Virus genome (UHGV): UHGV-0092341
Length of the DNA stretch: 31,377 bases
Reading direction: 5' to 3' (one strand)
Source of the DNA: a virus
The translations under genes and the position numbers were made by a program. The first letter of the stretch is position 1. Each line of letters opens with the position of its first letter. The notes beneath the pieces were generated by a model that worked only from the letters and a program-made list of their open reading frames with translations, did not search any database and was not told the origin of the DNA. Below, piece by piece: positions 1 through 31,377 of this stretch.

Positions 1-175
1 CTGCCAGCTCTGCCGCGAGGTCACTTTCGCTGCCCTGTCCGTTCAGGTTGCGGGCAGCACTGGCCGCCAGTTCAGCGGCCTCTTCTGTCAGTTTCAGGGC
101 CTGTGCGTCCGGCCCGAAACGCTGCAGGGCCAGACGGTAGAGAGCGGCGCGGGTGTGTACGGTATTCCGTGTCAT
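1..175 (-). CDS. hypothetical early-region protein, N-terminal 58 codons only (gene continues leftwards past window start)
   Basis: Minus-strand ATG at 175-173, open to position 1 (hand translation MTRNTVHTRAALYRLALQRFGPDAQALKLTEEAAELAASAARNLNGQ...). SD-like GAGGG 6 nt upstream. Absent from ORF track because no stop lies in the window. Confidence 0.4.
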   Translation of the reverse strand, partial: MTRNTVHTRAALYRLALQRFGPDAQALKLTEEAAELAASAARNLNGQGSESDLAAELA

Positions 176-184
176 ACCGCGCCC

Positions 185-457
185 TCAGTGCTTCCGGTCA
201 ACAATGATGTGCAGGTCGCCTTCTGCAGTGATTTCCATCCGGTACGGCACCTCGTGCTCTGCCGCGTGGGTGAGTGTGTTCACCAGTATCTGCAGGGCGG
301 CCTCCTTTCCGTTGGTCGCCACAATGGCCTGCGTGGCCATGCTGATTAACGCCGTCAGGGCGCACATGATATCGGTGAGGTCACGGCATTCACACTCGTT
401 GATGTACCGTTCAACAAGGGCGCGGGCGCGCTGATGTGCTTCCTGTGGGGTAATCAT
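185..457 (-). CDS. hypothetical early-region protein (90 aa)
   Basis: ORF in track; start overlaps stop of upstream gene (454-457, coupling); same strand as early operon. Confidence 0.5.
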   Translation of the reverse strand: MITPQEAHQRARALVERYINECECRDLTDIMCALTALISMATQAIVATNGKEAALQILVNTLTHAAEHEVPYRMEITAEGDLHIIVDRKH

Positions 458-648
458 TGCGCGTCCTCCCTGTCCGGGCGTGAGAACTCCATAACGGGCA
501 CATCTGCCGAAAAATGCTGGCTGCAGTACGGGCAGACCAGGGTGACGCGCACTGACGGTACGTGGTACTTACCGGACATCACGGCGACGGCGCTGTGAAA
601 ACGCAGGGTTGTAATATCTCTTTCGCACTGAATACATTTAAATATCAT
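454..648 (-). CDS. small CxxC...CxxC zinc-ribbon-like protein (64 aa)
   Basis: Two Cys pairs (CIQC, CPYC); strong SD GAGGAG 7 nt upstream of ATG at 648. Confidence 0.55.
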   Translation of the reverse strand: MIFKCIQCERDITTLRFHSAVAVMSGKYHVPSVRVTLVCPYCSQHFSADVPVMEFSRPDREDAQ

Positions 649-745
649 GATTTAATTCTCCTCTGTTTCCGGCGTGCAGAAGCCCACGGCGCTGACGCCG
701 GAATAAAAAAGAAAATGTTTTTATTAAATAATTAACGTGGTGTGT

Positions 746-1276
746 TTACTGCACATCCTGCTCAAAAGGAATTATTGAAAAATCCTCAATATCACTTTTT
801 ATGGTAATACCGGGAATATTTTTCACGGCGTCCTTTTCATTCAGGATAGCGTCTTTATTTATTTCCTCTTTTACACGAATAAAGCGCTCAAGCCCCAGAC
901 GTCTCAGTAGTTCAATAACATTATCCGCTCCGCGAATGCTGACTGACGGCGGGCGGTTTCGCCACTGCACCTCGCCGGTGGTGAGGTTAGCAAACTTCAC
1001 CTTCCCGTTGCCGGTCAGTTCATCACGGTGTGCCTCACACCATGTCTGGATACCGGACTGCAGTTCGGCCATGCGTTTTTTCAGGCTCTCGGTGAGCGGG
1101 GCATAACGTGCAGTGATGTCGCCAATGGTGTCATTCATTTCTGTTTCAGCCCTGACCAGTTCACGTTGTGCGTCACCGAGCAGTCTGATGCCCTCAATGA
1201 CCTCTTCGCGTGTCCCTGGTACCCAGAGTGCCGCTGCGGACTTGATACGTTTTGCCCCTTTTGTACTTTTTGCCAT
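746..1276 (-). CDS. gam: Gam-like host-nuclease inhibitor / DNA-end-binding protein (Mu Gam family)
   Basis: 176 aa; N-terminal MAKSTKGAKRIKSAAA and C-terminal GITIKSDIEDFSIIPFEQ closely match my recollection of Mu Gam; sits downstream of B as in Mu. Confidence 0.85.
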   Translation of the reverse strand: MAKSTKGAKRIKSAAALWVPGTREEVIEGIRLLGDAQRELVRAETEMNDTIGDITARYAPLTESLKKRMAELQSGIQTWCEAHRDELTGNGKVKFANLTTGEVQWRNRPPSVSIRGADNVIELLRRLGLERFIRVKEEINKDAILNEKDAVKNIPGITIKSDIEDFSIIPFEQDVQ

Positions 1277-1303
1277 ATCTTATGATTTCTCCAGTTGTGC
1301 TGA

Positions 1304-1573
1304 TTACCACAAAGATTCCGGCCACACGACGCGACAGCCGTGCAGTTCGAAAACGCCCTGACGGAAATATCCCCTGTGGTCATGTCCGGTATACAGATAA
1401 CAGGCCTTTCCCTGCTCAAGCATGCGCATGCAATGCGCACTCCGGGAAACGCGGATGACAGGTTTGTTACCCCTGATGGTGATGCTCTGTATATCCGTAT
1501 TCGTCGCCTTAAGTGCCATAATGGCTGACTGCACTTTGTTAATCTGCTGGCTGATAACTGTGGTGGATTTCAT
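1304..1573 (-). CDS. hypothetical early protein (89 aa), semi-essential-region-like
   Basis: ATG 2 nt after B stop; SD-like AAGGGG upstream; no recognisable motif. Confidence 0.5.
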   Translation of the reverse strand: MKSTTVISQQINKVQSAIMALKATNTDIQSITIRGNKPVIRVSRSAHCMRMLEQGKACYLYTGHDHRGYFRQGVFELHGCRVVWPESLW

Positions 1574-1575
1574 TA

Positions 1576-2742
1576 TTAAACCCCTTTGACAACGTCAGCA
1601 TTGACCTGTGGAACCCCGATTTCAGCGGCCAGATTCATGGCGGCTATCACCAGGTTACTGACGGCCAGCGGATACAGCAGGCTGACCATATTTTTACGAT
1701 GACTTCCCGGATTGCTCAGGCGGGCACGTATGGCATCCACTGCGCTGGCGTCCATAATGTCCGTCAGTTGTTTACCGGCCCGTTGCAGTTTGAACGTCAG
1801 AAATTCTTCAAGGTTATTGTCCAGAGGCAGAAGTTCGACCACCTCACAGCGCTGAACGACTTCACGGACTTCCATATTGCGTTCAGACAGTTTTGTCGCC
1901 AGTTCCGGCTGGCCAATCAGCACGATGGACAGCAGTTTTTTGAAACCGGACTCCAGCTCAAAAAAGCGTTTGAGGTGTTTCAGTGTCGGAATGGGCAGAC
2001 TGTGGGCCTCCTCAATCACCAAAACGTGGCTGAACCCCGCCTGGCTGCTGTCTTTCAGGACGCGATGCAACTGGCGAAAACGGGCGTCCTGACTGCGTCT
2101 GATGCTTTCCAGTGGTGCGATGGTACTGATAATGGCTTCGGCAATCGCTGCTGCCTTCAGGGTTTTCCCTTTCACATCGTTGTCTTCCATAGCGATGATG
2201 TATGGCTCGATAACAATTACCGGCGCATTCTCGCGGTTGATACGTTCAGTCAGGTCGCGGCGCAGCGTGGATTTACCCGCACCGGACTCACCGATGACGG
2301 CCATAAACCCACCATGACGGGCTGTCTGGTACAGCGCCTCACGCACGTAGCGAATGTCCGGGGTGGTGAACACATCATCAGAACCCTGCATGGCTTCGTC
2401 GGCGAACGGGTCACGGAAAAGACCAAACGCTTTTTTGGTTGCTGGAAATAACACCTGTTTTTTGAGTAACATATTCTCTTCCTCACTGAGGCTCGTTTTA
2501 TCTGTGGTACCCGCTGTACGGGGCGTGGCCGCGCCCTGTACAGCATCAAAACTCTTCGTTGTATCAATCCCCTGACTTTCCAGCCAGGACGCAAGACGCC
2601 GGCGCACTTCTCCAGGGCGGGTGCGGGGCCACGCGTTATGATTCACAATCTGGGCCAGCGTGGCCTCAGAAACATCGACAGCTCTCGCCACCACCGCCTG
2701 TGGGATACGGGCCTCTTTCAGTTGCTGCTTCAGTACCAGCAT
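1576..2742 (-). CDS. AAA+ ATPase, transposition target-DNA activator (MuB-like)
   Basis: Walker A GESGAGKST and Walker B HVLVIEEAH; directly downstream of transposase. I place the start at ATG 2742-2740 (SD GGAGG, 5-nt spacer, 10 nt after A stop) rather than the track's GTG at 2781. Confidence 0.8.
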   Translation of the reverse strand: MLVLKQQLKEARIPQAVVARAVDVSEATLAQIVNHNAWPRTRPGEVRRRLASWLESQGIDTTKSFDAVQGAATPRTAGTTDKTSLSEEENMLLKKQVLFPATKKAFGLFRDPFADEAMQGSDDVFTTPDIRYVREALYQTARHGGFMAVIGESGAGKSTLRRDLTERINRENAPVIVIEPYIIAMEDNDVKGKTLKAAAIAEAIISTIAPLESIRRSQDARFRQLHRVLKDSSQAGFSHVLVIEEAHSLPIPTLKHLKRFFELESGFKKLLSIVLIGQPELATKLSERNMEVREVVQRCEVVELLPLDNNLEEFLTFKLQRAGKQLTDIMDASAVDAIRARLSNPGSHRKNMVSLLYPLAVSNLVIAAMNLAAEIGVPQVNADVVKGV

Positions 2743-2752
2743 GTTTTCCTCC

Positions 2753-4522
2753 TCAGTTGCCGTTAACAATGCTGATAACACTGCTGCGGACCGGCGTGGT
2801 CAGCGTGGCCATGACTTCATCCAGTGCGGCTTCCGGTACGCCGTCCGGGTACTGTGCCGTTAACTGGCGGTAATGTTCCGGCGTCCAGGTAAGGCCGTCG
2901 GCGCTGAACTTATCGCGCAGGGCTTTCGCGGCCTCCACATGAGTCATGGGACGTTGTTCAGTGCGCGGCCCGCGTACGTCAGAGGCCTGACCACGCTTCG
3001 GCATATAGGCCGGAAGTGTGGCGTCATCAATATGTTTATACGGGTCAAGCCGCCCGCCGAACGGCAGCGCCTTCGCCTTGCGTGCGGCGGCTGCATCTGC
3101 GGCGTTGTCTGTACCGGTAACCAGCGCTTCGGTTTCTTTTGCCGCCATCTGTGCCGGGGTTTCCGGCAGGGCTTTGTAACTTTCGCCAAATACCGCCGCG
3201 CCTTCAGCAAAGCCAAACTCGTTCTTTCTGACCTCTTCGACCAGGAAGAACGTCTCGTGGCCGTCCTCACCGGTCAGAACCACCTGTGCCACATCGCTGC
3301 GCCATGGGTTACGGGTAATCATCAGTTTTTCACCAACCAGTACGCCCGGTACCGTTGATACGTCAAATTCAGTGCCCCGGAACGAGACACGAAGTTTTGG
3401 CGTGACTTTGCGGAGTTCTGGTGTCGCCACAGCCAGTTCACGGCATACCTCAACGGAAGGCGCTTTTTTCAGCTGCTCAGCAGTAATCTTCAGCCAGATA
3501 TCCGTGCGGGTTTTACCGTGGCGGCTGTGAACAGCCGTGGCGTTAAAGTGGCTGCGCCATTTCGCGGCCAGCGCGTTGAGTTCTTCCAGACTGTGAACCG
3601 GCCGGAACTTCAGACCCGGCTCCAGCTTGCGTTCGATAATGTCACGCGCCTTTTCCACCTGTCCGGTGGCGCGGGCGTTATGCGGCTTGTGTGCTATCAG
3701 GTCGATGCCCAGTGAGCGGCACATGTTTTTCGTCATACCCGCGGTGTTTGCCGAGCCGGGGTCGAGATAGAGTATTTTCGGCACGCCGTGCAGCACGTCT
3801 GCGCCGCCACGCTCCTGCATGGCGTTGATAAGCACAGAACACAGGTTCTCACCGGATTCCGCACCCGTCACATACTCAACGTAAATCCAGCCGCTGGCAT
3901 GGTCGGTAATCTCGTAACTCCACACGCGGTCACTGGCGATACGGGCAAGGTTAGCGGGCTTGTTCTTGTAGAACTTCGCGCTGTCCATCACCTGCAGTCC
4001 TTTGTGTCCATTACTCAGGTAGTAAAGCGTGCAGAGCGAGGCATCAATCTGCCAGACATGATTGGGATGCAGACTGGCCACTTCAGTATGTGGTGCAGGG
4101 GCATCCAGTTGTTCCGGGTGCAGGCCATAGTTACGCAGGGCTCGGCTGATGGCATCTTCGGACAACGGGAAAAACTCACCGGTGGTTTCATCTGTTCTGC
4201 CTGCGGAGATAAAGCCGTTAGCCCGCAGGGTTTCCACTGCATCCGCGATGGAATAGAGACGCTTACCGTTCTTGCGGGTGGCCTCACGCAGTGTGGCAGA
4301 TATCAGCGCGGCTTCGTCGCGGGTCAGGGCGCTGCGCCCGGCATCGGCGCGTTTTTTGCGTTTATCAGTCACAGAGACCTCCTTCAGCCTGCGCAGCAGA
4401 GTGGCGCGGGACATGCCAAGTTCAGCACAGGCAGCGTCGTATACTGCACCGCGTTTACCATGCCCCGCATTACGTGCCGCGCGGGCTGTTTCAACCAGTT
4501 TTTCAGTCAGTGCCGGGGTCAT
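2753..4522 (-). CDS. DDE transposase (MuA-like, rve/integrase core)
   Basis: 589 aa; HVWQIDAS-type first catalytic Asp region; N-terminal HTH-like segment; paired with B ATPase downstream; SD AGGGAAG upstream. Confidence 0.85.
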   Translation of the reverse strand: MTPALTEKLVETARAARNAGHGKRGAVYDAACAELGMSRATLLRRLKEVSVTDKRKKRADAGRSALTRDEAALISATLREATRKNGKRLYSIADAVETLRANGFISAGRTDETTGEFFPLSEDAISRALRNYGLHPEQLDAPAPHTEVASLHPNHVWQIDASLCTLYYLSNGHKGLQVMDSAKFYKNKPANLARIASDRVWSYEITDHASGWIYVEYVTGAESGENLCSVLINAMQERGGADVLHGVPKILYLDPGSANTAGMTKNMCRSLGIDLIAHKPHNARATGQVEKARDIIERKLEPGLKFRPVHSLEELNALAAKWRSHFNATAVHSRHGKTRTDIWLKITAEQLKKAPSVEVCRELAVATPELRKVTPKLRVSFRGTEFDVSTVPGVLVGEKLMITRNPWRSDVAQVVLTGEDGHETFFLVEEVRKNEFGFAEGAAVFGESYKALPETPAQMAAKETEALVTGTDNAADAAAARKAKALPFGGRLDPYKHIDDATLPAYMPKRGQASDVRGPRTEQRPMTHVEAAKALRDKFSADGLTWTPEHYRQLTAQYPDGVPEAALDEVMATLTTPVRSSVISIVNGN

Positions 4523-4537
4523 AGCTTGTCTTCCCTG

Positions 4538-4855
4538 TTATCCGATTCTGGCGGCAATTTTTCTGGCGAGGTCGCACAGTGTTTCGCCATCGCAGGCTTT
4601 CACCACGGTATTTACCGGTTGCGGTACAGCTACCGGGCGCAATGCTGACTGAGACTGCAGGCGTCTTATCTGCTGCATCAGCATCTCCTCCATCGTCAGT
4701 ACAAACGGGTGCGCCTCCTGTGCGGGTACGCAGATTTCACCGGAAGGGGTTACCACGCGGAAACCCTGCACCATTTCCGGCACCAGATTACACAGTGCGT
4801 GCCCCAGTGCCTCAGGGCTGTCCATCAGGATATTTTGTGTGTTATTCGTATTCAT
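4538..4855 (-). CDS. hypothetical early protein (105 aa)
   Basis: ORF in track; ATG overlaps stop of upstream 305-aa gene (coupling); 15 nt upstream of transposase. Confidence 0.5.
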   Translation of the reverse strand: MNTNNTQNILMDSPEALGHALCNLVPEMVQGFRVVTPSGEICVPAQEAHPFVLTMEEMLMQQIRRLQSQSALRPVAVPQPVNTVVKACDGETLCDLARKIAARIG

Positions 4856-5772
4856 TACTGCATATCCTCCGGTCGGTTGATTTCAGGTTCCGGTTCGGTC
4901 AGCCAGGCGGGGACATCGTTACCCGATGGTGCGGCATCAAGGTCAAACGTCTCACGCAATGCATGAACACTGCGTTCAATCTGACAGACCAGACCGGCCA
5001 TGAAATCTCTGGGGGTATCAATCATGTTTTTACTGCAGTATTCACACAGGGTTTCAAAGGCACCGGACAGCCGGACGGCAACAGCAGATTCCGCTTCAAC
5101 CGCTAATGCCGTCACTTCCGCCCGCAGCTTCTTCATCTCTTCATCAGGCTCAGGCGGCTGAATACGGGATTTCTTCTCCAGTCTGGTGGAGAGTGAATCT
5201 ATTTTTTCATTTTTGTCGGCAAGTACGCGCTGTTGTGCTGCGTTGGTTTCACGCGCTTCGCGCAGAGCCTGACGGAGTTCACGTACTGACATGCGATCAA
5301 CGTCGTCAAGCGTCAGGCCGGCAACTGTGCCGCCGTCGGCCAGTTCGGCAAGGTCTTCGTCATCTTCAGCAACAAGTTCAAATAATTTTGCCTTACCTAA
5401 AAGCGACAACGTTGTCGCTTTTGGCTCTAGTTTTGGTGAAAGGTATTTCAAAGATGCTTTCATCATTCGTTGTGCTGCGCGCACATGCAGACCAAGTTGT
5501 TCTTCTACAATTCCAACAAAGTCCCCGTGTGGTTCATTTTCTTTGAGAATAATAAGCCGTTTACCTGCCTCCAGCATGGCCTCAGCGCTCTGTGCCATAT
5601 AAAACCGAGCCTCATGAACTATGCGATCTCGCTCATAGGGCTGACCATCGCCAAACTGCTGCATGATCTCCATGCGATGCTGTGTCATGGCGTTCAGACT
5701 GACATTGAGATCATCCGACAGAGGCTCCTCGGCGTTCAGTTCAGTGTTAACGGGGGATTTGGTGCGTCCCAT
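4855..5772 (-). CDS. hypothetical early protein (305 aa), acidic with coiled-coil-like centre
   Basis: Strong SD AAGGAG 6 nt upstream of ATG at 5772; no catalytic motif recognised. Confidence 0.55.
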   Translation of the reverse strand: MGRTKSPVNTELNAEEPLSDDLNVSLNAMTQHRMEIMQQFGDGQPYERDRIVHEARFYMAQSAEAMLEAGKRLIILKENEPHGDFVGIVEEQLGLHVRAAQRMMKASLKYLSPKLEPKATTLSLLGKAKLFELVAEDDEDLAELADGGTVAGLTLDDVDRMSVRELRQALREARETNAAQQRVLADKNEKIDSLSTRLEKKSRIQPPEPDEEMKKLRAEVTALAVEAESAVAVRLSGAFETLCEYCSKNMIDTPRDFMAGLVCQIERSVHALRETFDLDAAPSGNDVPAWLTEPEPEINRPEDMQ

Positions 5773-5782
5773 TGATTACTCC

Positions 5783-6091
5783 TTACAAACGACTACCTGA
5801 AATAACACGTTGGTTGATTTCGTTAATGCGATCCTGTGCACGTGCCATCTCGTTACTGTGGGCCATGGCGATCTGCAGTAACTGGATGCCCGGCGCGAAA
5901 CGCCCGTTTTCCAGTTTCAGAGCCAGCCCTTCTTCGATGAGGGTGTTGAGTGCCCGGTTGATGTTTGCCGGTGACTCGTGCAGTGCTGCCGCCAGTTCAC
6001 CGTTAGAAATACCATTCAGGGCATGACCGCGCAGCGCTTTGAGTACCCGGAGGATGCGACTGCCGGAGCTTGAAACATTCGTCTTACTCAT
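5783..6091 (-). CDS. winged-helix/HTH DNA-binding protein (second early regulator)
   Basis: HTH-like RILRVLKAL...ISNGELAAAL...INRALNTLIEEGL. I prefer ATG at 6091 (SD AAGAGG, 7-nt spacer) over track start 6097. Confidence 0.5.
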   Translation of the reverse strand: MSKTNVSSSGSRILRVLKALRGHALNGISNGELAAALHESPANINRALNTLIEEGLALKLENGRFAPGIQLLQIAMAHSNEMARAQDRINEINQRVISGSRL

Positions 6092-6143
6092 CTGCATACC
6101 TCTTTTGCGATATGTGATAACCTTTTACAAAGACTCAAAATCT

Positions 6144-6332
6144 TCAGGCTGCCTGAGCTGTTGATTTCAGCCCCAGTTTCACGGCGATTTCATGGGATTT
6201 ACCGTAACGGGCTTTGGTCTGCCCGTTGAGAACGCGGTATACCTCATTGCGGTTGTAGCCGTTTTCTTCTGCCCAGCGGGTGAACGTGATCCCGCGCTGG
6301 CGAAAGAGGGCTTTGACTTGTTCTGCAGTCAT
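6144..6332 (-). CDS. Ner/Cro-like small DNA-binding protein, first early gene
   Basis: 62 aa; strong SD AAGGAG; first gene of leftward operon, divergent from repressor as in Mu c/ner. Confidence 0.6.
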   Translation of the reverse strand: MTAEQVKALFRQRGITFTRWAEENGYNRNEVYRVLNGQTKARYGKSHEIAVKLGLKSTAQAA

Positions 6333-6432
6333 CGTTGTCTCCTTTGTTGATGCAATGATGTTTGCCTTATGTGTGATAGATTATGGTGCAGATTACCTCA
6401 CCAGTCAACTTAAAGAGTGCAGAAAAACTCAC
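6333..6432. promoter_or_regulatory. divergent early/repressor control region (promoters and operators expected)
   Basis: 100-bp AT-rich gap between divergent starts of Ner-like gene (6332) and repressor (6433); operators not mapped. Confidence 0.4.
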
Positions 6433-6771
6433 ATGATCGGGTTACGTATTAAAGAAGAAAGAGAGCGTCTATCTCTTACACAGCAAGGGTTGGCTGATGC
6501 TATAGGTGTGGCAAAGAGAACTTTCATTGATTGGGAAAAAGATCGCACTTCTCCTACTGCAGTGCAGTTATCTGCACTATCAGAAATCGGTGTAGATATT
6601 TTGTATGTAGTTACTGGGGTGCGGAGTCAGCCTGTTGTTGCACCGTATGTGTCACAAGAAAAGAAAGAGTTAATGGATGCATTCGACGAAATGAGCCCCG
6701 AACAACGGAGGGCAATTCTTGAGGTCGGCAAAGTCTTCATTCAACCAAAACCGAGCAAACTCGCAGGCTGA
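6433..6771 (+). CDS. XRE-family HTH repressor (c-repressor analogue)
   Basis: HTH LSLTQQGLADAIGVAKRTFIDWEKDRTSP. Start taken at ATG 6433 because the track's 6280 start would overlap the Ner-like gene. Confidence 0.65.
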   Translation: MIGLRIKEERERLSLTQQGLADAIGVAKRTFIDWEKDRTSPTAVQLSALSEIGVDILYVVTGVRSQPVVAPYVSQEKKELMDAFDEMSPEQRRAILEVGKVFIQPKPSKLAG

Positions 6772-6857
6772 TTCTGACCCGGACACAAAGGGCGCGTGGT
6801 TGATCTGGATGCTTTCAGAAAACATCGCCAGTGACATAGTGGAAGTTGTCTGGTTTA

Positions 6858-6884
6858 CCGGAAAGCATTGCGCTTTCCGGTTTT
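6858..6884 (+). terminator. rho-independent terminator-like hairpin (9-bp stem CCGGAAAGC/GCTTTCCGG, 5-nt loop, then TTTT)
   Basis: Read directly from sequence; lies between convergent repressor and methyltransferase 3' ends. Confidence 0.5.
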
Positions 6885-6887
6885 GCT

Positions 6888-7652
6888 TCAGAAGTTGCAG
6901 ATTACCAGTTCACGGCGCGGCGTGGGTTTCCCCGCCAGACTGTAGTTGATATTCACCGTCTGTATGTTCAGTTCAGTGAACACCCGACGCATCTGCGGAA
7001 TGTCGTTCACCGAGATAATCATCTTTCCTCTGATGCACCGGGCCAGTTCTGCGAGTAGTGTGTAGTTCTCTTCAGGAAAATCCACACCATAGCCTTCCGT
7101 CCCCAGATAGGGCGGATCACAGTAGAACAGCGTGTGCGGACGGTCATAACGCTTAATGCACTGGTGCCAGTCCATGTGTTCTATCACCGTTCTGGAAAGC
7201 CGCAGGTGTGCCGCTGACAGTTCTTCTTCAATACGTAGCAGATTGAAGCGTGGCGGAGATGTGGTGGAGGTGCCGAAGCTGTGCCCTGCCACCTTGCCAC
7301 CAAATGCCTGCTTCTGGAGGTAGTAGAACCGTGCCGCACGCTGGATATCCGTCAGTGTTTCTTCCGGGGTGATCTGCAGCCATTTGTAGATCTGCCGGCT
7401 GACCAGCGCCCATTTGAACTGGCGGATAAATTCTTCCAGGTGATGTTTTACCACCCGGTACAGATTCACCAGTTCACCATTGATATCGTTAATGACTTCG
7501 AGCTTGCCGGGAGTCTTGAGAAAATAGAGCGCAGCTGCGCCGCAGAACGGCTCCACATAACATTCATGCGCAGGAAACAGCGGCAGGATGTGTTTTCCCA
7601 GGCGGCGTTTGCCACCAATCCATGGAACGATGGGTAATGTCTGCGTTTTCAT
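6888..7652 (-). CDS. Dam-like N6-adenine DNA methyltransferase (D12 class), orphan
   Basis: 254 aa; motif I FCGAAA near N-terminus and motif IV DPPY (FYCDPPYLG) near C-terminus; no adjacent restriction-enzyme-like gene. Confidence 0.8.
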   Translation of the reverse strand: MKTQTLPIVPWIGGKRRLGKHILPLFPAHECYVEPFCGAAALYFLKTPGKLEVINDINGELVNLYRVVKHHLEEFIRQFKWALVSRQIYKWLQITPEETLTDIQRAARFYYLQKQAFGGKVAGHSFGTSTTSPPRFNLLRIEEELSAAHLRLSRTVIEHMDWHQCIKRYDRPHTLFYCDPPYLGTEGYGVDFPEENYTLLAELARCIRGKMIISVNDIPQMRRVFTELNIQTVNINYSLAGKPTPRRELVICNF

Positions 7653-7693
7653 AATCTGTAAGCCTTTTACAATTATTAAAAATATGGCAGGCT

Positions 7694-7794
7694 AGTCTGG
7701 TCTCGCGAGACTGACTGAACCTCGGTCGGCTCACAGCGCATTCCTGTGGGACGATGGCCAGCCCGGCTTTCGGGTGCCGGGCTGGTCGTTCTTT
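7694..7794. other. structured intergenic element: 12-bp perfect palindrome (7700-7711) plus 10-bp-stem GC hairpin (7758-7785) followed by T-rich tract
   Basis: Read directly; hairpin plus TCGTTCTTT resembles an intrinsic terminator in plus orientation although no plus-strand gene precedes it. Confidence 0.3.
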
Positions 7795-7841
7795 CATGAT
7801 GCGGCAGGGATAGTGGGATTTCTGTTAATGTGGTTTAGGGA

Positions 7842-16482: not shown

Positions 16483-16508
16483 CCGACAACATAACGCGGG
16501 ACAGCAAA

Positions 16509-25867: not shown

Positions 25868-26751
25868 TGTTTGCCGTACTGGGTGATATTGAGTTTGAGC
25901 TGATTACCTACTGGGACGGCTTCGAGGCCACGTTCGGCGTCGATTATGCGGAGCATGCCCGCATCGGGGGTAAGCCTGGCCTGCAGTTCGTCGGCGACAG
26001 GCTGGACGAAATCCAGATAAGTCTGGTCTTCCATCAGCATTATTGTGTACCCGATGTGGAGCTGGCGAGACTGCGAACAACCATGAAAGCCCATCAGGCA
26101 CTGGCGCTGGTCTTCGGCAACGGTGACTATCGTGGCTGGTTCGTGATTACCGATGTGACCGCAACCAGCGAGCAGACAGACAGCACCGGTAACGTGCTGG
26201 CTGTCAGTGCCACCGTGTCTCTCCGGGAATACACCGGTGATCCGAAAAATCCTCTGCAACCACCGGCAATACGCACGAAGCTCCCGGGTGTCGGGGCGGT
26301 CTCCGGTGCCATTCCTTCACCTTCAGGGGTGGCGCAGTTCATCCGCAACGGCGTCAACTATGCGAAACAGGCGCAGTCTGTACTCCAGACCACTATCAGA
26401 GCCGTTCGGGTGACACAGAAAATGAAGGATAACCCCGTTGTCGCACTGACCCGTGTGCCGGGGCTGATGAGCGGACTGGGTAATATATCCGGGGCTCTGG
26501 GGAAAAGTGTTCCGGCGTTTAACGCACTCTCTGAATCCATGCCCGATGCCATCAGTCTGGCCAGAACAGCCAGCGAAGCAGCCACGTATGTACAGCAGGC
26601 ACAGTCTGCGCTGAGTGGTGTGGACAAAAGAAATATTGCAGGTGCTCTGGATACCGTTTCCGGGCAGCTTAACGCCGCCGGCACAGCATTCAACCGCATG
26701 TCTCCGGGATTAAGTGCAATGGCCGCCAGAATACTGACGAGGAGTGTGTGA
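25867..26751 (+). CDS. tail protein (Mu N / P2 gpU-like position)
   Basis: 294 aa; ATG overlaps tape-measure stop (TGATG). Assignment mainly by position. Confidence 0.5.
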   Translation: MFAVLGDIEFELITYWDGFEATFGVDYAEHARIGGKPGLQFVGDRLDEIQISLVFHQHYCVPDVELARLRTTMKAHQALALVFGNGDYRGWFVITDVTATSEQTDSTGNVLAVSATVSLREYTGDPKNPLQPPAIRTKLPGVGAVSGAIPSPSGVAQFIRNGVNYAKQAQSVLQTTIRAVRVTQKMKDNPVVALTRVPGLMSGLGNISGALGKSVPAFNALSESMPDAISLARTASEAATYVQQAQSALSGVDKRNIAGALDTVSGQLNAAGTAFNRMSPGLSAMAARILTRSV

Positions 26752-26963
26752 TGTTTCTTGAACATGTTACCCGTGACGGAGAGCGCTGGGATTCGCTGGC
26801 ATGGCAGTACTACGGTGACCCGCTGGGCTATCCCCGGATTATTGCCGCCAATCCGCACGTGGCCATCACGCCGGTGCTGCCCTCCGGGCTGTTGTTACTG
26901 ATCCCGGTGATTGAGGCTGAAGAAGCCCGTACAGAAGAGGATATTGCCCCATGGCTGAGATAA
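26748..26963 (+). CDS. tail protein X-like (LysM-like, P2 gpX family)
   Basis: 71 aa; pattern RWDSLAWQYYGDP...IIAANPHV resembles gpX/LysM motif; sits between gpU-like and gpD-like genes as in P2. Confidence 0.6.
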   Translation: MMFLEHVTRDGERWDSLAWQYYGDPLGYPRIIAANPHVAITPVLPSGLLLLIPVIEAEEARTEEDIAPWLR

Positions 26964-28120
26964 ACAGCACTGCGCAAGTCACATCAGCGTTAACCGGCGT
27001 CAGCGATGTGCTGACACCGGTGTTCACTCTGTGGTATCTGCAGAAAAACATCACCTCTGATATCGCGCCTTATGTCACCCGTGTGACCTGGAGCGATAAC
27101 ATCAAAAATGAGTCCGATACCATTGAGGTGGAACTGGACGACACCGATGGCCGCTGGCTGGATAAATGGTATCCGGGCAAGGGTGACACGCTGACGCTGA
27201 AAATGGGCTATCAGGGCGAGAAGCTGCTGTCCTGCGGTACGTTCTCTATAGACGAGATCGAAGTGAGTTCGCCCGCTTCCGTTGTTTCTATCCGTGGGGT
27301 GGCCACCTCGGTTAACAGTGCCCTGCGGACTAAAACCAGTCGTGGTTTTGAGAACACCACGCTGGCAGCTGTTGCGGGGCGGATTGCCAGAAAGCACCGA
27401 CTGAAACTGGTGGGCAGCATTGAGTCCATCAGAATCGACCGGGTGACCCAGTATGCTGAAACGGACGTGGGTTTTCTGCGCCGGCTGGCCAGCGAGTATG
27501 GTTATGCAGTGAAAGTGGTCAGTGACCAGCTGATTTTTTCTCATCTGGCCACACTGCGCAGTCAGGAGCCGGTCAGGCAGTTAAAACCGCAGGATGTGGC
27601 CCGCTTTTCCCTGCGTGACACCATCAACCGGGTCTATAAATCTGCAAAGGTAAAACACCAGAAAAGCAGCAGTAAAAAACTGATCGTCTACGAAGCTGAT
27701 GGTGGTACCCGTGAAAGCGACAAACAAACCAAAGGCGGTAAGGTCACCAGTGCCGACTCACTGAAGGTCAACAGCCGCGTCAGCGACCCGGACAGCGCCC
27801 GGATTAAAGCGGATTCGGCGCTGGCCAGGCATAACGAATACCAGCAGAACGGCTCCCTGACGCTGACGGGAACACCTCAACTGACTGCAGGCAACAAAAT
27901 TGAACTGGTGGGTTTTGGACAGTTATCCGGGCCATGGCTGATAACCACTGCCCGCCATGCGTTTGACCGCAACAGCGGCTATATCACCGAACTGGAGGTG
28001 GCGCGAGGGCCGGTCACGCAGGGCAAGGCGAAGAAAGGTAAAAAGACCGGCAAGAGTCAGACACTGACCGTCTATAAACCGGACGGCAGCACATCTACGG
28101 TAACAAAGGAGAAGAAATAA
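26951..28120 (+). CDS. tail/baseplate hub protein (P2 gpD / Mu P-like)
   Basis: 389 aa (P2 gpD is about this size); lysine-rich C-terminal tail; conserved order. Confidence 0.65.
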   Translation: MAEINSTAQVTSALTGVSDVLTPVFTLWYLQKNITSDIAPYVTRVTWSDNIKNESDTIEVELDDTDGRWLDKWYPGKGDTLTLKMGYQGEKLLSCGTFSIDEIEVSSPASVVSIRGVATSVNSALRTKTSRGFENTTLAAVAGRIARKHRLKLVGSIESIRIDRVTQYAETDVGFLRRLASEYGYAVKVVSDQLIFSHLATLRSQEPVRQLKPQDVARFSLRDTINRVYKSAKVKHQKSSSKKLIVYEADGGTRESDKQTKGGKVTSADSLKVNSRVSDPDSARIKADSALARHNEYQQNGSLTLTGTPQLTAGNKIELVGFGQLSGPWLITTARHAFDRNSGYITELEVARGPVTQGKAKKGKKTGKSQTLTVYKPDGSTSTVTKEKK

Positions 28121-28632
28121 TGGCAGGTGTCACCCGTCAGGTCGGTACGGTCAGCGCCGTCGATGCCGACAAGGTTCAGGCCCGCGTTCGTCTGCCTGAG
28201 TGCGATAACCTGCGCACTAACTGGCTTAACGTACTCCAGCGCAACACCCAGGATAACAAGGATTACTGGCTCCCTGACGTGGGGGAGCAGGTTGAGGTGC
28301 TGCTCGATGCCAACGGCGAGGATGGTGTCATTCTGGGCGCGGTGTACTCAGGCGTCGATAAGCCACCGTTCAGCGACAAAAACGTCCGGGGCACGAAATA
28401 CGCGGATGGCGCAGAGTTCAGCTATAACCGCGCGACCCATACGCTGACGGTCAAAGGTGGTATCGAGCGCGTAGTAATCGAGGTTGCGGTAGGTATCAGC
28501 CTGAAGGGGAAAACCATTGATTTGACCGCTGACACCACCACGGTGAACGGCAACCTTGAAATCAACGGCAATGCCCACTCCACAGGTAGCATGCTGTCTG
28601 ACGGCCAGAACTCTAATCACCATTCCCACTGA
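28120..28632 (+). CDS. baseplate central spike (P2 gpV / Mu gp45-like)
   Basis: 170 aa; C-terminal beta-rich segment typical of spike tips; conserved position. Confidence 0.65.
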   Translation: MAGVTRQVGTVSAVDADKVQARVRLPECDNLRTNWLNVLQRNTQDNKDYWLPDVGEQVEVLLDANGEDGVILGAVYSGVDKPPFSDKNVRGTKYADGAEFSYNRATHTLTVKGGIERVVIEVAVGISLKGKTIDLTADTTTVNGNLEINGNAHSTGSMLSDGQNSNHHSH

Positions 28633-28633: not shown

Positions 28634-28684
28634 CTTCTTAAACGCCTTTAATATCGGCGTTCCCGCACAGGGGCAATACTGCCC
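28634..28684 (+). promoter_or_regulatory. candidate late promoter (conserved bipartite motif, copy 4), upstream of baseplate genes
   Basis: CTTCTTAA-N4-CTTTAATATC-N20-ATACTGCCC; spacer holds hairpin GGGGCA-ATAC-TGCCCC; motif ends 3 nt before ATG 28687. Confidence 0.5.
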
Positions 28685-28686: not shown

Positions 28687-29034
28687 ATGAAAACAACTTC
28701 CGTATTCTGGCAACCGGCCCTGCAGGCTCCCGGCGAAATTGTCCGGGGGCTGGATGATATCTGGCAGGCGATTCAAATTATCCTGCGAACTCCCCGTGGC
28801 AGCGACCCGCATCGCCCAGAGTTCGGCAGCAATCTGCATCTTTATATCGACTGGCCTGTAAACCGGGCCATTCCTCATGTGGTGCGCGAATCTGTCGATG
28901 CCATCCGGCGCTGGGAGCCTCGCTGCCAGCTTATGTCGGTTAAACCCGCCGTCGACGGCGAACATCTTACGCTCCGGGTGAGCTGGAAAGGCTCTGACGG
29001 ACAGCCCCGGACTCAGGAGTTGCTATGGCGCTGA
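28687..29034 (+). CDS. baseplate wedge protein (GPW/gp25-like)
   Basis: 115 aa; motif RTPRGSDPHRPEFGSNL typical of gp25/GPW family; no SD, start may be leaderless or mis-set. Confidence 0.65.
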   Translation: MKTTSVFWQPALQAPGEIVRGLDDIWQAIQIILRTPRGSDPHRPEFGSNLHLYIDWPVNRAIPHVVRESVDAIRRWEPRCQLMSVKPAVDGEHLTLRVSWKGSDGQPRTQELLWR

Positions 29035-30128
29035 CAGAACCCGATTTTATTGAACGTGATGCCGACAAAATCACGGCTGAAATGATTGCACAGTACGAAG
29101 CCGCAACCGGCAAAACGCTGTACCCCGCTCAGGCTGAGCGCCTGTTGATTGACCTGTGGGCATACCGCGAAATGCTGGTCAGGGTAGCGGCGCAGGAAAT
29201 AGCCAAACAGAATCTGGTCGCCTTTGCCCGTGAGCCGATGATTGATTACCTCGGTGAACTGGTCGGTGTTTACCGCCTTGCCGCGCAGCCTGCCACCACC
29301 ACGCTCCAGTTCTCCGTGGATGAGGCACTGGCCATTGACGTGCTGATTCCGGCGGGTACCCGCGTCAGCGCTTCCGACAGCGTTATTTTTGCCACCGATA
29401 CAGATGTGGTACTGAAGGCCGGATTGCTGCTGGTCAATGTCACGGCCACCTGTACCGAACCCGGTACCGCTGGTAACGGCTGGCAACCTGCGCAGGTCAG
29501 TCAGTTACTCGATGAGATTGATAACGTCGACCTGCTGGTGAGCAATCTGACGGCCAGTTCCGGCGGTTCAGAACAGGAAGACGATGACAGGCTCCGGGAG
29601 CGTATCAGACTGGCCCCGGAGTCATTCACCAATGCCGGAAGCCGTGGCGCATACCGCTTTCATGCCATGCAGGCCCATCCCAACATTGTCGATGTTGCTG
29701 TGCTTTCCCCGGTTCCCGGCACCGTAGATCTGTATCCGCTGCTCAGTACCGGTCTGCCGGACGGCGGTGTTCTCACGCTGGTAGAGAGTTTCTGCTCTGA
29801 TGAGAAAGTCAGGCCGCTCACTGATACCGTGCGGGCTAAAACACCTGTGCAGGTGGATTATGCCATTGAAGCCAGGATTACGATCTATCGTGATCAGGAT
29901 GCCGGGTCTGTAAAAGATGCCGCCAACAGTGCCATCCAGAACTGGGTGGCATCACGTGCCGCCACGCTGGGGCGCGATATTGTCCCCAGCCAGATTATCA
30001 GTGCATTGTCCGTTTCCGGGGTGTACCAGGTTGAGCTGGTGACACCGGCACTGCGGGTGGTGGCAGAAAACGAATGGGCAAACTGTACGGCGATCACACT
30101 TAACATGACCAGGGTGTCCGATGGCTGA
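29025..30128 (+). CDS. baseplate protein J-like (P2 gpJ / Mu gp47-like)
   Basis: 367 aa directly after GPW-like gene; conserved W-J-I order. Confidence 0.7.
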   Translation: MALTEPDFIERDADKITAEMIAQYEAATGKTLYPAQAERLLIDLWAYREMLVRVAAQEIAKQNLVAFAREPMIDYLGELVGVYRLAAQPATTTLQFSVDEALAIDVLIPAGTRVSASDSVIFATDTDVVLKAGLLLVNVTATCTEPGTAGNGWQPAQVSQLLDEIDNVDLLVSNLTASSGGSEQEDDDRLRERIRLAPESFTNAGSRGAYRFHAMQAHPNIVDVAVLSPVPGTVDLYPLLSTGLPDGGVLTLVESFCSDEKVRPLTDTVRAKTPVQVDYAIEARITIYRDQDAGSVKDAANSAIQNWVASRAATLGRDIVPSQIISALSVSGVYQVELVTPALRVVAENEWANCTAITLNMTRVSDG

Positions 30129-30699
30129 GCCGCTACAACTCCCGCCACCGCTTGAGGGGGATATCAGCCTCAGAACGCTGGGAAGACTGGCCGGGCGGCT
30201 GGATAACATCGACCTGAGCGTACTGATGGTCTATCTCGTCGATATCGTCGACAGTTCCGCGCTGCCATGGCTGGGAGAGCAGTTCTCACTGTTCGGCGAT
30301 GGCTGGGAGCTGGCGGAATCGGACGATGTTCGCCGCATGCTTATAAAAGCAGCCATCGAACTACACCAGTATAAAGGGACGCCGTGGTCAATCCGGGAAG
30401 TTATCCGCCGTTTTGGCTTTGGTGAAGTGGATCTGATTGAAGGCACAGGTCGTCTCAGTTACGACGGCAATCGCAGCTATAACGGACTGTTTGTTCATGG
30501 AGATGCAGCCGCCTGGGCGGTTTATCGCGTTATTCTGAAACAGCCCATTACTAACGATCAGGCCGCGATGCTGCGTCAGACGCTCGCTGCATTTGCACCG
30601 GCCCGCTGCCATCTGGCCAGCCTGGAGTATCAGTCTGTGGCTATTCGCTATAACAATACCGCCATCCATGATGGCAGTTATAACCACGGGAGCAGTTGA
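30121..30699 (+). CDS. baseplate/tail protein I-like (P2 gpI / Mu gp48-like)
   Basis: 192 aa; overlaps J-like stop; immediately precedes tail fibre gene. Confidence 0.6.
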   Translation: MAEPLQLPPPLEGDISLRTLGRLAGRLDNIDLSVLMVYLVDIVDSSALPWLGEQFSLFGDGWELAESDDVRRMLIKAAIELHQYKGTPWSIREVIRRFGFGEVDLIEGTGRLSYDGNRSYNGLFVHGDAAAWAVYRVILKQPITNDQAAMLRQTLAAFAPARCHLASLEYQSVAIRYNNTAIHDGSYNHGSS

Positions 30700-30701
30700 T
30701 T

Positions 30702-31377
30702 ATGGGAAACCTGAATGAAACAGAAAAGTGGGAAGAAAATATCTATCAACTGGAGACATCAGATCCGGTTCTGGGTGGTGCTGACGGGATATCAAATCGA
30801 GCCCCCCGGCAACTGGCAAACAGGACGAAATGGCTGAAGAAGAAAACGGAGGAAGCCGCACAGTCACTGGCTGAACACGTGCGTTCCCGTAACCACCCGG
30901 ACGCGACACTGACAGCTAAGGGGTTCACCCAACTGAGCAGTGCCACCAACAGCACCTCTGAAACGCTGGCCGCCACACCAAAAGCCGTCAAGGCTGCATA
31001 CGACCTTGCAGCCGGCAAGGCGCCCGTCAGCCACACTCACCCGTGGAGTCAGATAACGGGAGTGCCTGCTGCCTCGCTGACGGCAAAAGGCACCGTACAA
31101 CTGAGCAGCGCCACGGACAGTCAATCAGAAACTGAGGCTGCCACGCCGAAGGCTGTGAAAATCGCGTATGATCTGGCCCGGGGAAAATACACAGCCCAGG
31201 ATGCAACAACGACCCGTAAAGGGATCGTACAACTGAGCAGTGCCACCAACAGCACCTCTGAAACGCTGGCCGCCACACCAAAGGCCGTCAAGGCTGCATA
31301 TGACCTGGCTGCCGGCAAGGCCCCCGTCAGCCACACTCACCCGTGGAGTCAGATAACGGGAGTGCCTGCTGCCTCGC
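30702..31377 (+). CDS. tail fibre protein, N-terminal 225 codons only (runs off window end)
   Basis: ATG 30702 two nt after gpI-like stop; hand translation MGNLNETEKWEENIYQLETSDPVLGGADGISNRAPRQLANRTKW... followed by ~50-aa repeat units (QLSSATNSTSETLAATPKAVKAAYDLAAGK). Absent from ORF track because no stop in window. Confidence 0.75.
   Translation, partial: MGNLNETEKWEENIYQLETSDPVLGGADGISNRAPRQLANRTKWLKKKTEEAAQSLAEHVRSRNHPDATLTAKGFTQLSSATNSTSETLAATPKAVKAAYDLAAGKAPVSHTHPWSQITGVPAASLTAKGTVQLSSATDSQSETEAATPKAVKIAYDLARGKYTAQDATTTRKGIVQLSSATNSTSETLAATPKAVKAAYDLAAGKAPVSHTHPWSQITGVPAAS
30931..31377 (+). repeat. tail-fibre repeat units (about 150 bp each); units 1 and 3 near-identical, 300 bp apart
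   Basis: 30931-31077 and 31231-31377 differ at only a few positions; a diverged unit lies between them. Confidence 0.8.

Follow-up and report, generated by a model that had tools for sequence, protein, structure and literature searches.

Gene organization of the window

The DNA analysed here, a stretch of 31,377 nucleotides that we refer to as the window, is composed of two opposed arms (Table 1). Ten genes between positions 185 and 6332, including those for Gam, an AAA+ analogue of the B protein and a DDE transposase, are read leftward. About 29 lysis, head and tail genes at 9310-31377 are all read rightward, unbroken from the holin gene to the window edge. The signs of both GC and AT skew switch in step with gene direction. 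An initial annotation had placed transposase, B and Gam on a leftward arm and the lysis and morphogenesis genes on a rightward one, and the ORF list, Pfam and skew agree with it.

Table 1. Coordinates of genes and sequence elements in the window
Feature	Position	Strand	Evidence
Leftward gene	185-457	-	ORF list
Leftward gene	454-648	-	ORF list
Gam host-nuclease inhibitor	746-1276	-	Pfam Phage_Mu_Gam, E 7.8e-41
Leftward gene	1304-1573	-	ORF list
AAA+ transposition ATPase, BcepMu gp08 orthologue	1576-2742	-	Pfam AAA_22, E 4.4e-20
DDE transposase, rve/Tn552 type, BcepMu gp09 orthologue	2753-4522	-	Pfam rve
Leftward gene	4538-4855	-	ORF list
DUF3102 protein, BcepMu gp10/B3 ORF13 orthologue	4855-5772	-	Pfam, PHROGs, BcepMu/B3 comparison
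Winged-HTH early regulator, BcepMu gp12/B3 ORF14 orthologue	5783-6097	-	Pfam HTH_IclR
BcepMu-gp16-family HTH protein, first gene of early operon	6144-6332	-	NCBIfam TIGR04111
Putative divergent promoter/operator region	6333-6432	.	Promoter scan
c-like HTH_3 repressor, BcepMu gp17/B3 ORF18 counterpart, predicted immunity determinant	6433-6771	+	Pfam HTH_3
Intrinsic terminator between convergent repressor and dam genes	6857-6881	+	10-bp stem, 6 GC pairs, T run
Dam methylase	6888-7652	-	Pfam MethyltransfD12; PADLOC MTase_II
Accessory ORF	7842-8057	-	PHROGs of unknown function
Accessory ORF	8056-8460	+	PHROGs of unknown function
Accessory ORF	8436-9179	-	PHROGs of unknown function
Late-promoter-like motif 1, before lysis/packaging operon	9243-9287	+	Motif scan
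Holin	9310-9660	+	Pfam, PHROGs, BcepMu colinearity
SLT endolysin	9660-10403	+	Pfam, PHROGs, BcepMu colinearity
Rz, with embedded Rz1 (10733-10999)	10387-11037	+	Translations
TerS, Mu gp27-like	11668-12222	+	Pfam, PHROGs
TerL	12219-13535	+	Pfam, PHROGs
Portal, Mu-type	13535-15031	+	Pfam, PHROGs
Mu F	15012-15833	+	Pfam, PHROGs
Mu G	15836-16294	+	Pfam, PHROGs
Late-promoter-like motif 2, before head protease gene	16437-16481	+	Motif scan
Head protease/scaffold	16509-17624	+	Pfam, PHROGs, BcepMu colinearity
Major capsid	17639-18592	+	Pfam, PHROGs, BcepMu colinearity
Cement-like	18602-18940	+	Pfam, PHROGs, BcepMu colinearity
gp36	18942-19388	+	Pfam, PHROGs, BcepMu colinearity
gp37	19388-19852	+	Pfam, PHROGs, BcepMu colinearity
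Gene in head/tail-shaft operon	19849-20103	+	
Tail sheath	20093-21520	+	Pfam, PHROGs, BcepMu colinearity
Tail tube	21520-22041	+	Pfam, PHROGs, BcepMu colinearity
Gene after tail tube	22044-22325	+	
Late-promoter-like motif 3, before tail chaperone gene	22354-22398	+	Motif scan
Tail chaperone, gpE-like	22423-22758, extension frame to 22840	+	Pfam
Tape measure	22916-25867	+	Pfam
gpU-like	25867-26751	+	Pfam
gpX-like	26748-26963	+	Pfam Phage_tail_X, E 3.7e-18
gpD-like hub	26951-28120	+	Pfam
gpV-like spike	28120-28632	+	Pfam
Late-promoter-like motif 4, before baseplate/fibre operon	28639-28683	+	Motif scan
gpW	28687-29034	+	Pfam
gpJ	29025-30128	+	Pfam
gpI	30121-30699	+	Pfam
Tail fibre, gpH-like	from 30702, cut at 31377	+	Pfam

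Concerning the early arm, the transposase (589 aa) matched Pfam rve and none of the Mu-specific Pfam domains. It displays 68% identity to BcepMu gp09 over 581 aa and 56% to the B3 transposase; a Tn552/IS1604-related rve DDE transposase orthologous to gp09 is a hallmark of the BcepMu type. Residues D160, D254 and E290 were invariant across 102 homologues. Comparison with MuA gave a BLASTP E-value of 0.47 and no match by tblastn, and sequence-level matches to solved transposases all fell short of significance. A fold search with the AlphaFold2 model (pLDDT 91.5) ranked TnsB (1.9e-18) above IstA (4e-15) and the MuA transpososome (3e-11). The modelled fold is thus nearest to TnsB, and kinship with MuA appears at the fold level only. 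The AAA+ ATPase is 59% identical to BcepMu gp08 and 55% to B3 ORF11, with no match to MuB (BLASTP E 2.5; none by tblastn). This ExeA-like protein, encoded directly downstream of the transposase, would be a functional analogue of MuB. Gam is 62% identical to Mu Gam, and sequence comparison with the BcepMu and B3 genomes gave no counterpart. The proteins originally named transposase and B are not orthologues of MuA and MuB. The HTH protein encoded by the first gene of the operon scored 97.4 bits against TIGR04111 (BcepMu_gp16; cut-off 34), is 71% identical to B3 ORF17, and is Ner/Cro-like by position.

The central 6.3-9.3 kb is more than a simple divergent switch: the repressor gene and a strong terminator are followed by four genes of mixed orientation. 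A promoter scan identified a leftward sigma-70-like early promoter with -35 TTGACT (6408-6403) and -10 CATAAT (6385-6380), matching at 10 of 12 positions. The repressor is DicA/RstR-like by NCBIfam, and its region is merely 63-72% identical to most relatives that elsewhere reach 94-98%. The three accessory ORFs gave no match in Pfam, PADLOC or NCBIfam; an exclusion or defence function possibly lies hidden in the variable leftward-reading stretch at 7842-9179, just ahead of the lysis promoter. The late genes are not driven from the central control region proposed initially; the c-like gene is followed by the terminator and a 2.4-kb mixed block.

In the late arm, Mu-type packaging and head genes are combined with a P2-type contractile tail cassette, as the BcepMu type requires (Pfam, colinear tblastn). 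Two small genes lie between Rz and TerS in the lysis/head operon (9310-16294), and 22423-28632 is colinear with BcepMu gp41-gp48. The sole PDB sequence match of the gpX-like protein was the R-pyocin 'glue' protein PA0627, a weak one (E 0.052), and BLASTP against P2 gpX produced no alignment. The presence of this gene between U-like and D-like genes, noted previously, was confirmed by Pfam; the order, taken at the time to be P2-like, is that of BcepMu.

Comparison with BcepMu, B3, Mu and P2

When the 45 window proteins were compared with phage genomes by tblastn, 34 matched BcepMu, all colinear and with strands agreeing, and seven matched Mu. This synteny supports the earlier view that the organization is of the BcepMu type and not that of canonical Mu. 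A layout in which the bottom strand carries the early genes and the top strand the late ones has been described for BcepMu-type phages (PMC2771037, PMC5977238), and further literature (PMC2628397) also counts in favour of this reading. BcepMu (NC_005882) consists of two divergent gene clusters with the gp16/gp17 control pair at their interface, as in the window, and shares the SLT endolysin, the embedded Rz1, the Mu-type head genes and the P2-type tail with the order U-X-D (gp45-46-47). BcepMu differs from the window in its morons, one of which is an acyltransferase, and has no match to Gam, Dam or the accessory block. It is also reported to be devoid of a tail-fibre inversion system (PMC2771037); the E. 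coli relatives of the window, in contrast, have a Gin-like invertase with 229-nt inverted repeats.

B3 (NC_006548) matched 18 of the 45 proteins, in the early, lysis and head arms, and shares the layout, with an inverted early operon running from Mor at the left end through to the c/HTH switch. Besides the transposase and ATPase, homology extends to DUF3102, the regulators and the lysis and head genes, and a 6-bp target duplication has been reported (PMC8705779). Its tail, in contrast, is of the siphovirus type, shows no homology to the window tail genes and includes the Dam gene in its region. B3 and D3112 had been grouped together in the initial annotation; this cannot be maintained, as the B3 layout is inverted like that of the window and D3112 is laid out like Mu.

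Mu (NC_000929) shares the transposable lifestyle, the Gam, Mor and GemA families, TG...CA ends, the gp27, TerL, portal, F and G head genes, and the use of several activator-dependent late operons. On the other hand, nearly all early, middle and late genes of Mu are unidirectional, with c at the left end, which is not the case in the window, and its tail genes are unrelated to those of the window at the BLAST level. Mu uses two activators in succession, Mor and C; the annotation of the window's relatives shows only one Mor-family gene. Mu proper (Muvirus) was ruled out, as MuA/MuB sequence homology and a unidirectional layout are lacking and the duplication is 6 bp, not 5 bp, in four of four relatives.

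Homologues of the P2 (NC_001895) tail genes FI, FII, E, T, U, D, V, W, J, I and H are present in the window; besides a weak TerL match, P2 matches were confined to tail genes, the head genes being of Mu type. The P2 genome places X between L and Y, with U and D directly adjacent and the V operon ahead of the F operon, whereas X lies between U and D in the window. P2 integrase, cos and replication genes were not found in the window. A P2-like phage (Peduoviridae) was thus ruled out on the absence of the integrase, cos, A/B replication and P2 head genes and on the misplaced X.

Relatives, termini and insertion sites

A query consisting of window positions 1-25000, which spans both arms, was matched in 648 of 5,426 complete E. 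coli genomes (about 12%) with DNA identities of 94-97%. Phage PhiKM (PQ738613) is 96.6% identical to the window and is classified as Bcepmuvirus in the GenBank taxonomy. Across most of the window, nucleotide identity to PhiKM and to the prophages in E. coli strains MS 21-1, C51, A20 and NRZ14408 is 94-99%, and gene content and order are shared. Alleles vary in the immunity region (6.0-7.0 kb), the N-terminus of holin/endolysin and gpV; the gene at 4538-4855 is absent from two relatives, and PhiKM also differs in the terminase region. The ICTV genus threshold is about 70% genome-wide nucleotide identity. The window itself gave no megablast match to BcepMu, with protein identities of 23-76%, although PhiKM is placed under Bcepmuvirus. 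Membership in the BcepMu organizational type is safe; whether the window belongs to the genus in the strict sense is doubtful.

The end motif GNGATAAWT has no match in the window, and the ends of relatives lie beyond it, so that both prophage ends are outside, as originally stated. Prophages with 94-97% identity have their left end 3,384 bp to the left of position 1 and their right end some 2.0-3.0 kb past position 31377, indicating that about 3.4 kb and 2-3 kb of the prophage, respectively, are missing. Four such relatives occupy four independent sites (fryA, the yfiB-rplS region, the dpiA-dcuC region and an eib gene), each with identical 5'-TGA...TCA-3' termini. All four are flanked by 6-bp target duplications (GCTGGC, GCGCCG, CCGGCA and TGAAGA), and a reconstructed empty site with a single GCGCCG showed 100% identity to other E. 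coli genomes along 494 nt. A 37,152-bp copy has just four occurrences of GNGATAAWT: both ends carry one at nucleotide 12 and one at nucleotide 35, in inverted orientation. The ends of BcepMu, also TGA...TCA, carry repeats in the same layout. Mu-type terminal repeats and a 5-bp duplication had been anticipated in the flanks. Ends with two repeats each were indeed found in the relatives, but the duplication is 6 bp, not the 5 bp of Mu (PMC8705779). Transposon status is drawn from these relatives and not from the window's own copy, because its ends, Mor and GemA lie outside the window.

We considered whether a P2/Mu-like late-gene prophage had been joined centrally to an unrelated transposon or second element carrying the rve transposase and AAA+ ATPase. 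The central 6-9 kb is lower in GC (0.48-0.51 versus about 0.57) and mixed in orientation, the accessory block at 6888-9179, Dam included, has no BcepMu tblastn match at E<=1e-3, the B3 homologue of the Dam gene is located at a quite different genome position, and the immunity region is mosaic across relatives. Nevertheless, the element is not composite, because in each of four independent insertions both arms lie within a single pair of inverted ends and a single target duplication. Both arms are also colinear with BcepMu and B3, and 591 of the 648 matching E. coli genomes carry at least 80% of the query in one place. The end motif has no internal occurrence, and the Mor activator is encoded on the left arm with its candidate target motifs on the right. 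The composite reading is thus already contradicted, and we give it practically no credence; the enclosed arms argue equally against a non-transposable phage, which the initial annotation had also considered.

A defective, immobile remnant retaining BcepMu-like genes seems very unlikely. Damage does occur in the relatives: one (L002) has an IS21 within gpJ and a frameshifted DUF3102 gene, another (L009) a frameshifted invertase, and a third (L005) a frameshifted small gene and an invertase reduced to a remnant; the window itself is incomplete. However, the 40-odd window ORFs are all intact and full-length relative to BcepMu, PhiKM was deposited in GenBank as a phage, and some induced human-gut prophages have been classified as Bcepmuvirus (PMC12629997). 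The occupation of four different insertion sites, with duplications still intact, implies recent mobility. The window is, with high probability, an internal part of a temperate transposable myovirus of about 37 kb in E. coli, of the BcepMu/B3 organizational type. This kind of prophage is common and already described, and its inverted early/late layout has been published.

Proposed life cycle and candidate late promoters

In the temperate transposable phage, the transposase is predicted to bind the two repeats (nucleotides 12-20 and 35-43) at each TGA...TCA end and, with the adjacent AAA+ ATPase, would join these ends to target DNA cleaved with a 6-bp stagger. Both integration and replication would proceed by transposition, the ends, repeats and 6-bp duplications being those seen in near-identical relatives. 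The c-like repressor would shut off the leftward early promoter within the divergent region of 100 bp. Once the prophage is induced, transcription of the early operon would proceed leftward through the genes for the gp16-type HTH protein, regulator, DUF3102 protein, transposase, ATPase and Gam, and then GemA and Mor beyond the window. Mor is predicted to activate four rightward late promoters devoid of a -35 consensus, at 9243, 16437, 22354 and 28639, which would serve the lysis/packaging, head/tail shaft, tape measure/hub and baseplate/fibre operons, respectively. Packaging is presumed to be headful, taking in flanking host DNA, by the precedent of BcepMu, whose virion DNA is reported to carry random host DNA at both ends (PMC2771037). 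For the window's own copy, transposable lifestyle and inducibility are predictions.

The full late motif, TAA-N6-TTAAWATC-N20-A-N2-CTG-N-C, matches the window at exactly four places, all of them in plus-strand gaps preceding an operon, a count that is not independent because the pattern was derived from those four sites. Independent support lies only in its position and in the BcepMu half-motif. The half-motif TAA-N6-TTAAWA matches five times in the window, at the four sites and at 22460 on the minus strand, and only twice in the 36.7 kb of BcepMu, at the orthologous holin and protease sites. The counterpart of motif 1 precedes the BcepMu holin gene (TAAAGCCGATTAAAAGAC), the same half-motif precedes gp32 as the counterpart of motif 2, and that of motif 4 precedes gp49 (TTAGCCGGCTTTAATATCC). 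The motif is absent from B3. Consensus sigma-70 promoters were not found in the four gaps. Terminator-like hairpins (16277-16294 and 16360-16373) lie shortly upstream of motif 2, and another (22332-22347) directly precedes motif 3. We found no prior description of the motif in the literature, the original BcepMu and B3 papers aside, and it may already have been published.

In the relatives, Mor, 56% identical to BcepMu gp01 and 31% to Mu Mor, is located at the left end, where Mor and GemA form the distal end of the early operon. The four late elements may serve this one Mor-family activator as binding sites and promoters, giving a two-tier cascade, a proposal for and against which we see the case as evenly balanced. 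If true, the late motif, kept at orthologous positions from E. coli to Burkholderia, would belong to a BcepMu-type cascade leading from the early operon through Mor to four late operons, as opposed to the three tiers of Mu, in which Mor is followed by C and then by the late genes.

Divergent arms of the prophage

The initial annotation described leftward early and rightward late arms. An ORF map of the window, combined with Pfam, PHROGs and NCBIfam scans, revealed ten genes in a row on the minus strand (185-6332) and an unbroken plus-strand series from 9310 to the window end, and the sign change of GC and AT skew matched the strand switch of the genes. The two arms were therefore confirmed. 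Searches of the window for tRNA genes and Rfam families returned none.

Features of the window
Feature	Coordinates	Strand	Remarks
Two small genes	185-457, 454-648	-	No assigned function
Gam	746-1276	-	Phage_Mu_Gam, E 7.8e-41
Small gene	1304-1573	-	No assigned function
AAA_22 ATPase	1576-2742	-	Pfam
Transposase	2753-4522	-	589 aa; rve the sole Pfam domain
Small accessory gene	4538-4855	-	
DUF3102 protein	4855-5772	-	
Winged-HTH regulator	5783-6097	-	
62-aa HTH protein	6144-6332	-	NCBIfam 'BcepMu_gp16 family', 97 bits (cut-off 34)
c-like HTH_3 repressor	6433-6771	+	ATG at 6433
Hairpin terminator	6857-6881		Strong; directly 3' of repressor gene
Dam-type methylase	6888-7652	-	
ORF	7842-8057	-	No assigned function
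ORF	8056-8460	+	No assigned function
ORF	8436-9179	-	No assigned function
Late-motif matches	9243, 16437, 22354, 28639	+	Ahead of holin, head protease, tail chaperone, gpW
Holin, SLT endolysin, Rz-like spanin	from 9310	+	Lysis genes, in this order; endolysin 9660-10403, spanin 10387-11037
Embedded lipoprotein ORF	10733-10999	+	88 aa
Mu gp27-type small terminase, large terminase, Mu portal, Mu F, Mu G		+	In this order
Intergenic gap	16295-16508		214 bp, G to protease
Head protease, capsid, cement-like protein, gp36, gp37		+	In this order
Sheath, tube, tail chaperone, tape measure		+	In this order; chaperone 22423-22840
gpU, gpX, gpD, gpV, gpW, gpJ, gpI, truncated tail fibre	to window end	+	In this order; gpX 26748-26963

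Relatives and synteny

Megablast with positions 1-25000 as the query identified Escherichia phage PhiKM (96.6% identity), placed in Bcepmuvirus in the GenBank taxonomy, followed by the Phi06_2974 B and Klebsiella KP12 phages (~85%). Matches were present in 648 of the 5,426 complete E. coli genomes, roughly one in eight, and in 591 of these genomes at least 80% of the query was found in one place. Two contigs from JGI metagenome 3300029738 carry a transposase sequence identical to that of the window. Among the E. coli copies, variation is located in the immunity region, the small accessory gene, the holin/endolysin N-terminus and gpV. A literature search for PhiKM returned only papers on phiKMV. 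The element is of a well-known kind and nearly identical to deposited sequences.

We then compared 45 window proteins with each reference phage by tblastn. BcepMu matched 34, strictly colinear and with strands in agreement (transposase 68%, ATPase 59%, sheath 76%), whereas Mu matched only seven (Gam 62%, F 48%, TerL, portal, G, a baseplate protein and a fibre segment). This agrees with the initial view that the prophage is of the BcepMu type and unlike canonical Mu. B3 matched 18 proteins, from the early arm and the lysis and head genes, and P2 matched 10, comprising nine tail genes and a weak TerL match. B3 and D3112 had been named together for comparison; B3 does have the inverted layout of the window, Mor and GemA being encoded at its left end and the transposase leftward, but D3112 is laid out like Mu. 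These results are in accord with the literature, in which the inverted early operon and Tn552-related transposase have been on record since 2004 (BcepMu, B3).

Unlike BcepMu, the window carries a Mu-like Gam and a Dam/accessory block, and its E. coli relatives have a tail-fibre inversion system that BcepMu is reported to lack. These differences are mosaicism and do not define a new kind. Gam, without counterpart in BcepMu or B3, looks like a module that the two kinds of transposable phage have exchanged in enterobacteria.

The gpX-like LysM gene does lie between U- and D-like genes as first noted, but its placement is not P2-like. The protein (71 aa, Pfam Phage_tail_X) is 56% identical to BcepMu gp46, and in BcepMu gp45-46-47 X also lies between the U and D homologues, whereas the P2 order places X between L and Y, with U directly next to D. 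BLASTP against P2 gpX found nothing, and the sole match in a PDB sequence search was a weak one to the R-pyocin baseplate 'glue' protein PA0627 (E 0.052). The term P2-like is fair for the whole tail module, not for the position of this gene.

Termini and target duplication

Because the prophage ends lie beyond the window, four near-identical prophages were examined instead. They are inserted inside fryA in E. coli MS 21-1 (duplication GCTGGC), in the yfiB-rplS region near the yfiB 3' end in C51 (GCGCCG), between dpiA and dcuC in A20 (CCGGCA), and inside an eib gene of another prophage in NRZ14408 (TGAAGA). All four copies start with 5'-TGA (TGATCAGACATGAGATAAATG in three, TGAAGGGACGTGAGATAAATG in A20), end with ...CATTTATCGCGCGGCGCATCA-3', and have a 6-bp direct repeat on both flanks. 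When the C51 empty site was rebuilt with a single GCGCCG, all 494 nt aligned without interruption and at 100% identity to other E. coli genomes, indicating that the duplication is real and 6 bp long. Terminal repeats and a target duplication had been anticipated, but with the 5 bp of Mu rather than 6 bp.

The 37,152-bp C51 copy has just four matches to GNGATAAWT, two per end at nucleotides 12 and 35 counted inward, and inverted, an architecture like that of the BcepMu termini. The motif has no match in the window, which, with the ends located in the relatives, confirms that both ends lie outside it. In the relatives, 3,384 bp separate the left end from window position 1, a stretch encoding GemA, Mor and two or three more genes. 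Between the window end and the right end, 2.0-3.0 kb farther on, the fibre gene is completed and a gene for fibre assembly is present, as is a Gin-like invertase gene in most copies.

We considered the possibility, raised initially, that two elements had been joined in the central region. In the relatives, however, both arms lie within a single pair of ends and a single duplication, which excludes such a composite. An IS-insertion reading was also weighed and rejected. Transposable prophages of the present type insert almost anywhere, as in fryA, near the yfiB 3' end, in the dpiA-dcuC region and in the eib gene, and therefore give rise to insertional mutations.

Other features were observed in the records of the relatives. 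The Gin-like serine invertase lies in the tail-fibre region (L002 45180-48741, beyond the window; also in L006 and L009), where 229-nt inverted repeats are 90% complementary, a system resembling the host-range switch of the Mu G segment. In L002, an IS21-family ISEc10 is inserted in gpJ (42033-44284). In L009, the record of the NRZ14408 copy, the junctions at 8387/46034 lie within an immunoglobulin-binding (eib) gene of a lambdoid prophage.

Transposase and ATPase

In 102 aligned, diverse homologues from a representative search, sharing 31-55% identity with the query, D160, D254 and E290 were invariant, and E290, 36 residues past D254, fits a DD(35)E triad. An AlphaFold2 model from this alignment had a mean pLDDT of 91.5; a model from a shallow alignment of 16 sequences, none below 67% identity, reached a pLDDT of 57 with the catalytic core unmodelled, and was set aside. 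The top Foldseek match in the PDB was TnsB of a type V-K CRISPR-associated transposon (E 1.9e-18, 470-540 aligned columns), followed by IstA of IS21 (E 4e-15), Tn7 TnsB (E 5e-13) and the MuA transpososome (E 3e-11), with retroviral integrases ranked below. These top fold relatives all pair with a dedicated AAA+ partner (TnsC, IstB, MuB), and the window transposase adjoins the AAA_22 ATPase. Fold and gene context thus suggest that the pair works like MuA/MuB. At the sequence level, the pair falls outside the MuA/MuB families: tblastn against Mu gave no match to MuA or MuB among the window proteins, and direct BLASTP gave E values of 0.47 (MuA) and 2.5 (MuB). The genes initially labelled 'transposase' and 'B' are thus not orthologues of MuA and MuB. 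A PDB sequence search with both proteins gave insignificant matches only.

Central region and late transcription

The gp16-type gene and the repressor gene diverge from a 100-bp gap, in which a sequence scan found a good leftward sigma-70-like promoter (TTGACT-17-CATAAT). Downstream of the terminator following the repressor gene is a 2.4-kb block of mixed gene orientation. Because of this terminator and block, the late genes are not transcribed from the switch; the supposed central control region does have the late genes to its right, but does not drive them.

In the accessory block, the methyltransferase was the sole PADLOC match, and Pfam, PADLOC and NCBIfam searches with the three ORFs were empty. 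The last ORF has a weak P-loop match, and two relatives have a shorter or different product in its place, which suggests a moron or exclusion hotspot. For the methylase, the B3 counterpart is ORF48 (63% identity), located in the B3 tail region on the opposite strand. The block lies between the immunity gene and the lysis promoter. The immunity region (6000-7000) is 63-72% identical to four relatives that are otherwise 94-98% identical, and 95% identical to the C51 copy. Such divergence among near-identical prophages points to several immunity types in the population.

Ungapped alignment of four plus-strand intergenic gaps identified a common motif, TAA-N6-TTAAWATC-N20-A-N2-CTG-N-C. It has exactly four matches in the window and none in shuffled sequence, a count that is not independent because the pattern was built from these sites. 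The half-motif TAA-N6-TTAAWA matches these sites and one more, at 22460 on the minus strand. Independent evidence comes from context and from BcepMu. The motif sites occur only in gaps ahead of operons, two with terminator-like hairpins directly upstream, and the four gaps contain no consensus sigma-70 promoter. In the 36.7 kb of BcepMu, the half-motif has just two matches, immediately ahead of the holin and protease orthologues, with a one-mismatch version ahead of gp49; in B3 the late motif is absent. The relatives carry a Mor-family gene at the far left end, whose product shares 56% identity with BcepMu gp01 and 31% with Mu Mor. We infer a cascade of two tiers: the leftward early operon would terminate in Mor, and Mor would turn on the four rightward late operons via the predicted sites.

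The gap between G and the protease gene is situated close to the centre of the full element, which corresponds to the relative position of the strong gyrase site in Mu. A hairpin in this gap, whose core TTTATAAAGGCTTTAC is found also in the BcepMu gap, is read here as a terminator.

Lysis and tail chaperone genes

Within the spanin gene, in the +1 frame, is embedded a proline-rich lipoprotein ORF (MKKVRAIPLSACLLAVSC...). The pair resembles Rz/Rz1 of BcepMu (gp23/gp24), and this Rz1-like ORF is not listed as a gene in the prophage annotations examined. The endolysin is extended at its N-terminus by ~65 aa that include two hydrophobic stretches, and BcepMu gp22 aligns only with residues 70-239; the enzyme may be of the membrane-tethered or signal-anchor-release type. 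In the tail chaperone, the extension (to 22840) lies in the +1 frame with respect to the gpE-like ORF, in contrast to -1 in P2 E/E'. A candidate slip site is the CCGGGGGAG run (G-run 22745-22753), two codons ahead of the stop.

Implications

With the divergent arms confirmed and the BcepMu-type interpretation supported with corrections, the discovery value is small, as the layout has been described and the prophage is common in E. coli. For annotation, MuA/MuB labels are unsuitable for the transposase and ATPase, and searches for the ends of such elements should look for TGA...TCA termini flanked by a 6-bp duplication. The predicted late-promoter motif and the end repeats are small, testable additions.
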